Part shown: piece after piece, positions 11,624 to 17,519 of the stretch
Numbering within the stretch: position 1 is the stretch's first letter
Layout of the letters: every line of letters begins with the position of its first letter
Source: Candidatus Fermentibacterota bacterium
GTDB lineage: Bacteria > Fermentibacterota > Fermentibacteria > Fermentibacterales > JCC-6
DNA: 64,000 bases
Direction: 5' to 3'
Assembly: GCA_963845085.1 (NCBI GenBank)
Contig: CAWJQI010000004.1
Coordinates: 96,001-160,000 of the forward strand
The notes under the pieces: generated by a model
The model's database searches: none
The model's input: the letters and a program-made list of their open reading frames with translations, nothing else
What the model was told of the DNA's origin: nothing
Program-made: the position numbers and the translations under genes

Positions 11624-11652
11624 TGGTGTCGCGTGTTGGAAGGAATTCGACT
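11624..11652. repeat. Degenerate att-like site 5 of the tRNA-Arg(CCT) cassette array
   Basis: TGGTGTCGCGTGTTGGAAGGAATTCGACT; 19/29 gap-free identity to sites 2 and 3 (hand count). Confidence 0.5.
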
Positions 11653-11779
11653 GAGAGCATCCACAGAGAAACAGGATTTCTGTACAGGGTTCACAAGTGA
11701 AGCTCTTGCTTTTGCGAAAAGTATAACTTACAATATCACTGTTACAGTACAGTATAGTTTACGTAAAGGATACTGAGCG

Positions 11780-12109
11780 ATGACTCGAACCCTTGATCTC
11801 AAAAGGCCGATACCCGTCCAAAGGGCCATCCGAAAGCTCGGACAGGACATCAGGGATGCCAGACGACGGAGAAGGCTTTCCACGGCACTTGTCGCCGAGA
11901 GGGCGGGTATCAGCAGAGTAACGCTGTCAAAGCTGGAAAAGGGCGATCCCGGAGTCTCCATAGGAATCATCGGTTCTGTCCTGATGGCACTCGATCTTCT
12001 TGACAGGTTAAACGATCTCGCTGATCCCCGGTACGATCTTCTGGGAAGAATGCTTGAAGAGGAACAGCTTCCGCAGAGAATTCGTGAAAGAGCAGTTAAG
12101 AAGGGGTGA
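11780..12109 (+). CDS. XRE-family HTH antitoxin (HipB-like)
   Basis: LGQDIRDARRRRRLS..VAERAGISRVTLSKLEKG, immediately upstream of a HipA-family gene. Confidence 0.88.
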   Translation: MTRTLDLKRPIPVQRAIRKLGQDIRDARRRRRLSTALVAERAGISRVTLSKLEKGDPGVSIGIIGSVLMALDLLDRLNDLADPRYDLLGRMLEEEQLPQRIRERAVKKG

Positions 12110-12110
12110 G

Positions 12111-13358
12111 ATGAACCCGGTGTTCGTCTACATCGATCTGGAAGGCAGGGCCGTACAAGTGGGCCGCATGTGGATCCATGCCCGGGGACGGAGAGAGAGC
12201 GCAACATTTGAGTACTCCGGTTCCTGGCTTGCATCCCCGGCCTGTTTCGCCCTTGAACCAGCCTTGTCAGTTGAGGAAGGATCACACAACACAAGAGAGG
12301 GGCTTCCGGTCTTCGGGGCAATCGGAGATTCCGCGCCTGACAGATGGGGTCGGGCTCTGATACGCCGGGCCACTCTGAGGGCGGACAGGGAGAAAGGCGC
12401 GACTCCCCGGACACTTAGGGAGATCGACTTCCTGCTCGGGGTGAACGATGAAGCCCGAACGGGTGCTTTGAGGTTCTCGTTTACGGAAGGTGGCCCGTTC
12501 CTGGCGCTGGGTACCGGCGCAAGCATCCCGCCAATTGTTGAACTGCCAAAACTGCTTGCAGCGTCAGACAGCCTGTTGCGTGAAGAGGAGTCGGGTGAAG
12601 AGCTCAGGCTCCTTCTCGCACCGGGCTCATCCCTGGGGGGAGCACAGCCGAAAGCATCCGTTAAAAAGGACTCTCAGCTCTTCATCGCAAAGTTTCCCAG
12701 TTCTGTTGACAGCTACAACAGAATTGTCTGGGAAGCGGTTGCCCTTGATCTTGCAGAGAGGTCGGGAATCACGGTTCCTGAAAGATGGCTTCAGCAGATC
12801 GACGGCAGGCAGGTCTTGATCCTGAAGAGGTTTGACAGAAAAGGAAATATCCGGATCCCATTCCTGTCAGGCATGAGCATGATCTCAGCAAGGGACAATG
12901 AAACGCACAGCTACCTCGAACTTGCAGACCGGATCAAAGCGCACGGAGCATTTCCCGACCGGGACCTTCACGAACTGTGGAAAAGGATCGTTTACACGGT
13001 TCTGGTATCAAATGTGGACGACCATATGAGAAATCATGGATTCCTTCTCCACAACCGAAGTGGCTGGGTTTTGTCCCCGGCATTCGACCTGAACCCTACG
13101 CCAGTGGACATTGCCCCCAGGATACTGACTTCAGCGATCGACATCGATGATCAGACTGCATCCATTGATCTGACCCTTGATGTAGCGCCATACTTCAATG
13201 TCAGTGCTGAGGACGGAAGAAGGTGCATCAGGAGCATCGCACAGGCTGTCTCAAAATGGAGGAGGGTTGCATCCAGCTACGGGATTTCCCGCTCCGAGAT
13301 CGAAAGGATGTCTTCCGCCTTCGAACATGAAGATCTGCACAGAGCAACAAGCATGTAG
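12111..13358 (+). CDS. hipA: HipA-family Ser/Thr kinase toxin
   Basis: DSAPDRWGR, GSSLGGAQPKAS, KRFDR, NVDDHMRNHG, SPAFDL. Confidence 0.93.
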   Translation: MNPVFVYIDLEGRAVQVGRMWIHARGRRESATFEYSGSWLASPACFALEPALSVEEGSHNTREGLPVFGAIGDSAPDRWGRALIRRATLRADREKGATPRTLREIDFLLGVNDEARTGALRFSFTEGGPFLALGTGASIPPIVELPKLLAASDSLLREEESGEELRLLLAPGSSLGGAQPKASVKKDSQLFIAKFPSSVDSYNRIVWEAVALDLAERSGITVPERWLQQIDGRQVLILKRFDRKGNIRIPFLSGMSMISARDNETHSYLELADRIKAHGAFPDRDLHELWKRIVYTVLVSNVDDHMRNHGFLLHNRSGWVLSPAFDLNPTPVDIAPRILTSAIDIDDQTASIDLTLDVAPYFNVSAEDGRRCIRSIAQAVSKWRRVASSYGISRSEIERMSSAFEHEDLHRATSM

Positions 13359-13385
13359 GAAAGTTCCTTTGTTGTTGCATAGAAG

Positions 13386-13416
13386 AAAGGCCGCCGGTTC
13401 AGTTTCCGGCGGCCAA
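13386..13416. terminator. GC hairpin, identical to 14607-14637
   Basis: GGCCGCCGG-TTCAGTTT-CCGGCGGCC with minus-strand T-tract; between convergent hipA and HEPN genes. Confidence 0.75.
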
Positions 13417-13424
13417 AACTCTTC

Positions 13425-13452
13425 TGTTGCCCCGTGGTGGACCATATTGAAC
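13425..13452. repeat. att-like site 4
   Basis: TGTTGCCCCGTGGTGGACCATATTGAAC, variant of sites 2 and 3. Confidence 0.8.
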
Positions 13453-15961: not shown

Positions 15962-16042
15962 AGTATCCCTCCTGCAGACAGAATCTCTATTGGAGAGATA
16001 AATAGATTGTCTTGCCGGGTCAAGCATTGGTCGATAGGTTGT

Positions 16043-16071
16043 TGGTGCCCCCTGGTGGACCTAATTTGAAC
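16043..16071. repeat. att-like site 2
   Basis: Identical to site 3; identity extends about 45 bp further into the terminator region. Confidence 0.85.
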
Positions 16072-16097
16072 AGGCTTCAGGTACGAGATTGCCCTAT

Positions 16098-16129
16098 GAA
16101 GAAAGGGCCGCTGCCGAAGCAGCGGCCCT
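16098..16129 (-). terminator. Intrinsic terminator of the RCC1-repeat gene
   Basis: AGGGCCGCTGC-TTCG-GCAGCGGCCCT followed by TTCTTC on the minus strand. Confidence 0.8.
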
Positions 16130-16147
16130 GCACTCGTTGGCAAACGA

Positions 16148-17362
16148 CTACCTGACCAGCACCACCCTTGCCGTGGCGAATTCCGAACCGCTGGCGAGGC
16201 GAACCAGATACACCCCTCCGGGCATGGGTTCCCCTCGAAGCCCCGTACCGTTCCAGATCAAGGTTTGCTGCCCAGGAGAGACAGCGGTTACTTCCTGCTG
16301 GTGAACCCGACGGCCTGAGAGGTCGAAGATTTCCAATGTGACGGAAGCAAGACCCGGAGAAGTGAATTGCAGTGTAGCATGGGACTCGAATGGGTTGGGA
16401 TAGATGGAATTGATCCCCAGGGTTGTGGGGTCTATACCTACGTGTTCTAAGTGTTCAATGGAAGTGAGTTCCTTCAGGCCGAGGCTGTGACCGTATCCCC
16501 CCGCAACCGCCATGAAACCCTCGTTCGGTTCAGGTACATCGCACTGGCCGAACTGATTGCTACCCCACGCCACGATGGAGCCGTCCTCCTTCAGCCCGAG
16601 GCTGAAAAGGCTTCCCGATGCAACCGCCACGAAACCGCTGTTCGGGTAGGGAACAGTGCACTGGCCGTAGTCGTTCAACCCCCACGCCACAATGGAGCCG
16701 TCTTCCCTCAGACCGAGGCTGTGTACGTATCCCCCCGCAACCGCCACGAAATCGCTGTTCGGGGAGGGAACATTGCACTGGCCGCACTGATTGTTACCCC
16801 ACGCCACGATGGAGCCGTCTTCCTTCAGACCTAGGCTGTGGTAAAACCCCCCCGCAACCGCCACGAAACCGTTGTTCGGGGAAGGAACACTGCACTGACC
16901 TTCATCGTTCCACCCCCACGCCACGATGTAGCCGTCTTCTTTCAGACCTAGGCTGTGATACTGTCCCCCCGCAACCGCCACGAAAGGACTGGAGTCAGGA
17001 ACATCGCACTGGCCGTAGTCGTTCCAGCCCCACGCCACGATGGAACCGTCTTCCTTCAGACCGAGGCTGTGATCGCCTCCCGTTGCAACCGCCACGAAAC
17101 CGCTGTTCGGGGAAGGAACATCGCACTGGCCGAACTGATTGCTACCCCACGCCACGATGGAGCCGTCCTCCTTCAACCCGAGGCTGTGAGCGTCCCCCGC
17201 CGCAATCGCCACGAAATTCTCGTTGGGAGACGGAACATCGCACTGGCCGTCGTAGTTCCAGCCCCACGCCACGATCTCCCAGTTCCACTGTGCGAGCCCG
17301 GTTCCAGAAATGACAAGTAGAAGCAGCATTGAGAGCGATACCGAACTTAGGATGGTTTTCAT
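16148..17362 (-). CDS. Secreted RCC1/BLIP-II-like 7-repeat beta-propeller protein with FlgD-Ig/T9SS-like tail
   Basis: Seven ~39-aa repeats IVAWGxNxxGQCxVP..VAGGxxHSLGLKEDGS; signal peptide; YPNPF..FDLSGR..GVYLVRL. Confidence 0.9.
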   Translation of the reverse strand: MKTILSSVSLSMLLLLVISGTGLAQWNWEIVAWGWNYDGQCDVPSPNENFVAIAAGDAHSLGLKEDGSIVAWGSNQFGQCDVPSPNSGFVAVATGGDHSLGLKEDGSIVAWGWNDYGQCDVPDSSPFVAVAGGQYHSLGLKEDGYIVAWGWNDEGQCSVPSPNNGFVAVAGGFYHSLGLKEDGSIVAWGNNQCGQCNVPSPNSDFVAVAGGYVHSLGLREDGSIVAWGLNDYGQCTVPYPNSGFVAVASGSLFSLGLKEDGSIVAWGSNQFGQCDVPEPNEGFMAVAGGYGHSLGLKELTSIEHLEHVGIDPTTLGINSIYPNPFESHATLQFTSPGLASVTLEIFDLSGRRVHQQEVTAVSPGQQTLIWNGTGLRGEPMPGGVYLVRLASGSEFATARVVLVR

Positions 17363-17442
17363 AGTATCCCTCCTGTTTGAATTTTTCTATTGGAGAGATA
17401 AACAGATTGTCTTGCCGGGTCAAGCATTGATCGATAGGTTGT

Positions 17443-17519
17443 TGGTGCCCCTGACATGACTTGAACATGTGGCCTACGGTTTAGGAAACCGCCGCTCTAT
17501 CCAACTGAGCTACAGGGGC
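17443..17519 (-). tRNA. tRNA-Arg(CCT)
   Basis: GCCCCTG acceptor; anticodon arm GCGGT-TTCCTAA-ACCGT; T-arm ACATG-TTCAAGT-CATGT; CCA. Confidence 0.95.

Follow-up and report, generated by a model that had tools for sequence, protein, structure and literature searches.

The 64,000-nucleotide stretch of a Candidatus Fermentibacterota genome analysed here (hereafter the window; assembly G000, 88% complete) contains an array of four gene-sized units located behind the 3' end of a tRNA-Arg(CCT) gene. These units are probably non-autonomous cassettes that are bounded by a 29-bp site and moved by a visiting large serine recombinase (LSR) island at the tRNA 3' end. This reading is drawn from the fixed 5-bp shift in the geometry of the site, the antisense position of LSR genes at the tRNA end, the closure of LSR islands by the same site, and the shuffling of the units between species. 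The features of the array are listed in Table 1.

A first-pass annotation of the window had described four recurrences of a tRNA-end-like sequence, delimiting an RCC1-repeat gene, its broken paralogue, an MNT-HEPN pair, and a HipBA pair. All four sites were located, and the sizes and contents of the units agree with that description. The ends reported to be shared were also found by alignment: units 1 and 2 have 66 nt (97% identity) in common on one side and 132 nt (92%) on the other, and units 3 and 4 share an end of 45 nt (89%) containing a 9-bp GC hairpin. At four-fold degenerate sites, the identity between units 1 and 2 is 0.54–0.71, and by sequence comparison unit 2 is best described as a long-diverged paralogue of unit 1 whose ends are nearly identical to those of the latter. 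Unit 3 encodes a nucleotidyltransferase and a 139-aa partner, labelled PDC-M05A/B by PADLOC. The presence of HEPN on 15–29% of the members in two of the five Atlas clusters shown is a lead only towards assigning this partner to the HEPN proteins, and no solved structure matched it. An Rfam scan detected tRNAs only.

Table 1. Coordinates of the tRNA, units, sites, and arms of the array in the window
Feature	Position	Strand	Description
tRNA-Arg(CCT)	17443..17519	(-)	3' end probably forms the chromosomal (B) arm of the target
Unit 1, 1400 bp	16043..17442	(-)	leader, RCC1-repeat gene, terminator, site
Unit 1 protein, 404 aa	16148..17362	(-)	RCC1 repeats (RCC1_2), signal-like N-terminus, FlgD/type IX secretion system (T9SS)-type C-terminal domain
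Terminator-like hairpin ending the unit 1 gene	16104..16129	(-)	copy in unit 2 at 14708-14733
Site S1, 29 bp	16043..16071	(-)	element-side (P) arm and tRNA-like end; 30.7 bits
Unit 2, 1396 bp	14647..16042	(-)	frameshifted RCC1 paralogue, about 14752-15961, three frames
Site S2, 29 bp	14647..14675	(-)	identical to S1; 30.7 bits
P' arm behind S2	14602..14646	(-)	terminator-like hairpin 14610-14635
Unit 3, 1222 bp	13425..14646	(-)	MNT 13874-14590 and HEPN-like partner 13477-13896; promoter-like site 14578-14549
Site S3, 28 nt	13425..13452	(-)	lacks one base in G000 but is complete in runs X1 and X3; 9.5 bits
P' arm behind S3	13380..13424	(-)	hairpin as behind S2, 13389-13414; out of frame in G000; X1 has one extra base
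Unit 4, 1801 bp	11624..13424	(+)	HipB-like helix-turn-helix (HTH) 11780-12109 and HipA (HipA_C) 12111-13358; antisense to tRNA
Site S4	11624..11652	(-)	degenerate distal site; 19/29 identical to 16043; 12.1 bits

On the tRNA strand, the site reads GTTCRA-N5-GTCCA-N4, followed by the acceptor strand and CCA. The T-loop box begins 29 nt before the end of the site versus 24 nt before the end of the tRNA, i.e. it is shifted by 5 bp. Because the site copies resemble each other more than they resemble the tRNA, the four sites are interpreted from their sequences as element-side arms with a fixed +5 geometry, not as decayed or displaced tRNA ends. The notion of displaced ends decaying with age is replaced by that of +5 arms. 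The tRNA-Arg(CCT) 3' end itself is identical in 8/8 genomes of the genus. The increase in degeneracy with distance from the tRNA, which had also been proposed, is partly spurious, and only the remaining changes in S4 fit decay. In X1 as well as in X3, the base missing from G000 at 13447/8 is present. The site at 11624 begins with AGTCGA, as does that of the HipBA unit in G005, where this unit is only the second in the array. Site degeneracy is a poor clock here, and any age gradient is weak.

A site profile trained on 24 sites outside the window yielded nine matches of at least 14 bits in the genome and one in the reversed genome. S4 alone is not significant genome-wide (10 matches versus 4 in the control at 12 bits or more), and its validation comes from its position, since it ends the HipBA unit exactly where this unit ends in G005. 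Another site-like match, at position 8143 of the window (11.5 bits), is within the chance level and was rejected. The exact site pattern was matched 32 times in 19 of the 70 genomes of the phylum (reversed control, 0), one match (in G025) falling inside a coding gene. With a stricter pattern, 43 stretches were found in the species collection, among them stretches from Saccharibacteria, Bdellovibrionota, and Bipolaricaulota; some of the 43 lie 0.6–2.9 kb behind a tRNA. The +5 spacing also occurs behind tRNA-Asp, tRNA-Arg(ACG), and tRNA-Glu in G000 and behind tRNA-Leu in G007, and it forms the top bin of the spacing spectrum over all tRNAs (29 versus 12 in the control), with the qualification that the filter is loose and noisy and that other offsets gave 3–23. 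Sites of this type, 0.4–2.9 kb apart from one another behind tRNA-Arg(TCT) or tRNA-Phe, were observed in a Saccharimonadales record (L129/L130) and in Bdellovibrionota records (L123, L126, and L149).

The first-pass annotation had called for a comparison of cassette content at this tRNA across strains, and both content and order were found to vary among species exactly at the sites. The order at tRNA-Arg(CCT) is RCC1, RCC1', MNT, and Hip in G000 and AbiE, Hip, and MNT in G005. G004 carries MNT-HEPN, G002 carries MNT-HEPN followed by an RCC1-type leader, G052 carries HipBA, G001 carries an RCC1-type leader, and in G003 the distal flank is preceded by just a stub of MNT leader; other sequence is present in G006, and the G007 contig stops after 3 nt. 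The leader related to that of unit 1 follows the tRNA directly in G001 (173–189 of 209 nt identical) and the MNT unit in G002. The MNT-HEPN unit is 1220–1222 bp in three species and 88–93% identical in G002, G004, and G005, and the HipBA unit is 91% identical in G005, where its own site variant travels along, and 87% identical in G007. Four-fold-site identity is 0.62–0.92 for cassette genes (10 comparisons) versus 0.32–0.53 for five neighbouring core genes (15 comparisons). This higher silent-site identity points to exchange after the species split, and the MNT-HEPN and HipBA units have likely moved between species. The distal flank of the G003, G004, and G005 arrays (an Omp28-like gene and its neighbour) sits elsewhere in G000 (C5:498–499.5 kb).

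Among 58 site-to-site intervals in loci of the phylum, a count biased against long intervals by short loci, 39 measure 0.56–2.4 kb, 15 are units of 45–81 bp consisting of attachment (att) sequence only, and 4 are longer. Runs of 68- to 69-bp att-only units, similar to cassettes without open reading frames (ORFs), were seen behind intact LSR islands (L195:10156–10320, L207:8875–9040, and L197:8387–8483).

Domain matches confirmed that no recombinase is encoded in the window; the three tyrosine and two small serine recombinase matches of the genome all lie outside it. The search for a recombinase associated with the motif, which had likewise been proposed, identified in relatives, not in G000, an LSR family whose islands close with the site. 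Its members are proteins of 520–590 aa with Resolvase, Recombinase, and Zn-ribbon domains, encoded by genes whose ends lie antisense across the 3' end of a tRNA or across a tRNA-like site. Among the best 120 of 3360 LSR homologues, whose endings were classed, 88 end antisense to a tRNA, 2 in a P-arm peptide, 13 in an immediate stop, and 13 otherwise, and 4 were unparsed. A closing site in the right orientation lies 5.7–7.7 kb from the LSR gene in 7/7 family loci whose island side extends for at least 5.5 kb, in 1/10 long loci of other LSRs, and in none of 8 shorter family loci. The metagenome island L233 is likewise closed by the site, and the MNT-HEPN unit occurs in an array behind an intact LSR island in G044. 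LSR islands hold the LSR, an unknown protein of about 450 aa, an XRE HTH protein, and, in L190, DUF5659 (25 proteins scanned). The tRNA-Arg(TCT) gene bears family LSRs in G021 and G043. In viral contigs, no site match was detected; 3 distant LSRs were present, and none was found for the P0025 cluster described below.

The ends of these LSRs connect them with the arms of the array. Read on the other strand, the hairpin behind S2 gives QKAAGSVSGGQYSF followed by WCP, a peptide resembling the C-terminal end of the LSR family (p 0.0004 by comparison with 5000 random peptides), and 10/25 junction P' arms tested translate like an LSR tail at p 0.006 or less. Three LSRs (L266, ending WYPVLNDSRT, P0079, and P0062) continue directly into a P-type arm. 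The P0025 LSR cluster has six members, all of them ending in LFSIWCP, which matches the peptide of the first junction in G005 and the W-C-P-stop encoded antisense to tRNA-Arg(CCT); judged by these termini, the P0025-cluster LSRs are likely the cognate integrases of this tRNA. The crossover is bounded to tRNA position 70 or later. Two other candidates were dropped: among the 150 PF00589 matches listed for the 70 genomes (206 further matches exist), no tyrosine recombinase adjoins a site, and a dif-like 11-6-11 reading of the site, judged by eye, was abandoned after the link to LSRs had been made. In L165, L166, L168, L169, L171, L174, L182, and L201–L203, family LSRs terminate in sites that resemble tRNAs and have tRNA spacing, with no tRNA found in the locus.

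In the mechanism that we propose, the LSR would bind the T-loop arm on the tRNA side and the +5 arm on the element side, with the crossover at or after tRNA position 70. The attP site would consist of the P arm (GTTCRA-N5-GTCCA-N4), the acceptor end, and the P' arm, the last of which would correspond to the last 15 or so codons of the LSR gene and double as the tRNA terminator. With a poorly constrained right arm, the tRNA end would remain a target after each insertion, and new units would enter beside the tRNA; intact islands with small units behind them fit such entry. The cargo of each cassette would be flanked by no more than about 45 bp of P' and the 29 bp of P. The first-pass annotation is upheld in that the units are att-bounded and recombinase-free, with sites flanking them, and in that an integrase from outside is needed, for which a cognate family is now available. 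Its action may be in trans or in cis, as mobilization in cis gives the same arrays: movement of a cassette as its own circle and co-excision with a neighbouring LSR island appear almost equally probable, with a slight preference for the latter. The arrays behind intact LSR islands and the LSRs that read into P arms would be compatible with mobilization in cis, and no circles were seen in five runs. An island-plus-unit circle re-integrating via the inner junction would produce a reversed order and an LSR reading into a P arm, and such reading was seen three times. A broader proposal, which we regard as tentative, is that of a 'serine integron', in which gene-sized cassettes requiring att arms of only about 75 bp would move as independent circles among species of the whole phylum, and probably Saccharibacteria and Bdellovibrionota, with one widespread LSR family reading the universal tRNA T-loop on one side only. 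If so, every matching tRNA end could serve repeatedly as an entry site, without the helper having to remain.

Several findings weigh against the mobile-cassette interpretation. No excised-circle or empty-site junction, for which the first-pass annotation had advised a search, was detected in the contigs of five runs. No LSR of this family is present in G000, incomplete as the assembly is, its serine recombinases being the two small ones, and a close family LSR occurs in only 1/7 other genomes of the genus, there at tRNA-Leu. The P0025 cluster was assessed at the protein level. Six of the seven positive long LSR loci helped to build the family alignment, and the reading WxPxxDxFRT was forced by the search pattern and hence is not independent. 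Among 80 metagenome LSR loci, the site profile, which is phylum-trained, matched the island side in only 3, one of them a complete island at tRNA-Leu, many of the 80 loci being short. The arms behind the tRNA, S1, S3, and S4 of the window do not score as LSR tails, and no dyad symmetry between P and P' stood out at any of 20 centres tested, so that the crossover was not located. Finally, a unit may be found with a different P' arm, as the MNT unit in G004 and the Hip unit in G005 have other hairpin types. Such mosaic arms are left unexplained by a simple circle model and suggest an extra exchange between hairpin repeats.

The possibility of an assembly artefact, raised earlier for the repeated sites, was addressed with other public runs. 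A 372-nt contig of run X1 spans the junction at 13425 and a 151-nt contig of run X3 spans that at 14647, and therefore neither S2 nor S3 is an artefact of assembly. No public run contained half of the query words, and the uncovered parts prove nothing. One X1 contig has a gap in unit 2, and some of the frameshifts in this unit may be assembly errors. In run X4, another unit, of 1.76 kb, comes after the MNT unit, and HipBA is on a separate contig. Several split genes (window 7374–9168; L006:9417–14187) and indels that are absent from other runs were also observed, suggesting indel errors in the G000 assembly.

Local tandem duplication together with chance motifs, or an artefact of assembly, is largely refuted as an origin of the array and has very little probability, although it may account for unit 2 by itself. 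Paralogy and near-identical ends do link units 1 and 2, and G000 has several frameshifted genes and run-absent indels; yet the two units differ at 29–46% of four-fold sites, the S2 and S3 junctions are bridged in two other runs, and the site is found across the phylum. It is rather unlikely, though less remote, that the units are dead remnants, i.e. former LSR islands that lost their integrase by internal deletion, with shared units spread by homologous recombination between repeated arms or flanks. The P' arms do look like truncated LSR gene ends and are mosaic between genomes, G003 retains only the stub of the MNT leader, the MNT unit of G005 has lost its closing site, and decay to cis-mobilizable elements (CIMEs) is a route described in a review (PMC5704250). 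Against such decay, both ends of the units are conserved base for base in up to four species, with silent sites of core genes near saturation; the order of the units in G005 is the reverse of that in G000; units of the Hip and MNT types lie between such sites in two other genera; and 15/58 site-to-site intervals are att-only units.

A host tyrosine recombinase that runs the array in the manner of a sedentary integron with a remote integrase is an equally improbable explanation as duplication. The protein in question is an IntI/Xer-like protein of 278 aa encoded at G000:C4:64701–65534 (L002:1195–2031). It is present in 46/46 good genomes, nearly always in single copy, is 92–98% identical within the genus, and scores 115.6 bits on the integron-integrase model TIGR02249 (cut-off 265), the best match in the genome. 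However, 30/30 orthologues lack the catalytic K, H-II (G instead), and H/W-III (I instead) residues, with R, R, and Y kept, and the protein is likely a repurposed DNA-binding protein or partner subunit. It also occurs in 8/9 genomes of family f3, where the site pattern was found in 0/9. Moreover, the sites do not fold like attC, and the 29-bp site closes LSR islands.

Two features were tested for integrons and clusters of attC sites lacking integron-integrases (CALINs), namely IntI, a tyrosine recombinase encoded next to attI, and attC sites whose single strand forms a long hairpin. The array shares with them its polarity, gene-sized units each ending in their own site, toxin-antitoxin or defence cargo, and att-only empty units. 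Unlike them, it has no intI and no attC hairpin, is anchored on a tRNA, and consists of units that have their own promoter and terminator and face either way. The window encodes no tyrosine recombinase, and site-only sequences gave fold z-scores of −0.37 to 1.60 (5/7 sequences), only the two containing the terminator folding well. With both the IntI and the attC-fold tests failing, the array is, on sequence grounds, not an integron; the term 'integron-like' used in the first-pass annotation is apt for the outcome and not for the machinery.

One of the two closest parallels is provided by the ssrA islands of Dehalococcoides, which carry the serine integrase DsiB (McMurdie et al. 2011, PMC3146451). 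According to the text of that paper, these islands are arranged in tandem behind the 3' end of a transfer-messenger RNA (tmRNA) gene, the LSR gene overlaps attL antisense, 15 of the 31 islands lack the integration module, and a non-tDNA motif, TTCAGRSMGMRKCCA, precedes each repeat. Both systems thus comprise tandem islands behind a tDNA 3' end, TTCAGRSMGMRKCCA resembles TTCRA-N5-GTCCA, and the 3' end of the LSR gene overlaps attL (here in relatives). They differ in that the DsiB islands target tmRNA with a 20-bp repeat and a T-loop crossover, whereas tRNAs are targeted here with identity only from position 68–70 on, and the motif lies 7 nt closer to the end, as reckoned from the same text. The six-gene DsiB module (dsiB, dsiA, recF-like, parB, mom, and a large protein) is replaced here by LSR islands with other genes, and the units are only 0.6–2.4 kb, mostly with one gene or pair, and shuffled between species. 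The target of this array is not ssrA but tRNA-Arg(CCT); the G000 tmRNA gene bears a tyrosine-integrase island (C5:310.5–333.5 kb) that has a 500-aa integrase and a near-perfect 3' repeat 23 kb away.

CIMEs, as described in the review cited above (PMC5704250), are decayed integrative and conjugative or integrative and mobilizable elements (ICEs/IMEs) that lack integration genes, keep their att sites, stack at a gene 3' end by tandem accretion, and are co-mobilized by a neighbour; tRNA 3' ends are named there for tyrosine-recombinase IMEs. The units resemble CIMEs in having no integration or transfer genes and att sites at both ends, and differ from those described in their probable dependence on an LSR, their att arms of about 45 + 29 bp, and their gene-sized extent conserved end to end. 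In the LI/A118 model of LSRs, the zinc-ribbon motif is shifted by 5 bp between attP and attB (Rutherford et al. 2013, PMC3783163). The same shift and all three LSR domains are found here, but the shift is in left arms only and the right arm contains no symmetric motif. The abstract of that paper excludes other site pairings, whereas the arrays here would imply re-use of B-P' as a target. The Tycheposon islands of Prochlorococcus, as presented in a preprint (bioRxiv 10.1101/2020.12.28.424599), are also tRNA-seeded, with a transient integrase-bearing element that comes and goes and leaves cargo; 910/937 of them use tyrosine recombinases and their att sites are partial tRNA copies, in contrast to the LSR and the +5 arms found here. 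Serine integrases were not known to target tDNAs according to the 2015 Islander paper (PMC4383910). Our literature search, which covered few subscription papers, retrieved no account of gene-sized LSR cassettes at tRNAs or of these arrays in Fermentibacterota, nor of gene-sized units with arms of about 75 bp, shuffled between species at tRNAs and with a named cognate LSR.

If this interpretation holds, it explains how an anaerobe with a small genome swaps defence pairs and exported proteins with neither an integron nor a resident integrase, and it names an enzyme-site pair in which P0025-cluster LSRs are matched with the tRNA-Arg(CCT) end and the 29-bp arm. Serine integrases usually act only once on a target; an LSR that recognized a single arm and kept its target usable would depart from this rule and lend itself to stacking genes one after another. 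Finders of tRNA islands that require a tyrosine integrase and a length of at least 2 kb would miss these units.

Additional arrays with the 29-bp site are present in G000 at C4:744511–762332 (behind tRNA-Asp(GTC)), C1:1557–8517 (no tRNA found), C5:78519 (behind tRNA-Leu(CAA)), and C5:254893 (no nearby tRNA), and their cargo consists mostly of exported proteins with T9SS-type tails. Arrays L069 and L071 have 4–5 sites and no tRNA within 20 kb. Arrays with +5 spacing and another motif lie behind tRNA-Arg(ACG) (C4:878–889 kb; L007) and tRNA-Glu(TTC) (C5:701–707 kb; L009), the units of the former ending in a small HTH ORF that resembles the tail of the LSR L216. The motif GGTTCATCACC..AAGGGGGG follows several tRNAs of the genus (L009:1579–1625, L010:6795–6825, L376, and L386) and is possibly the end of another element. 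The site scan also revealed a repeat of about 40 nt in two copies 507 bp apart (G000:C1:233308 and 233815). In the window, a His-Lys-Arg(TCT) tRNA cluster (5671–7164) is located head to head with the array, and an AAA/DUF4143 gene (PADLOC PDC-S01) abuts its tRNA-Arg(TCT).

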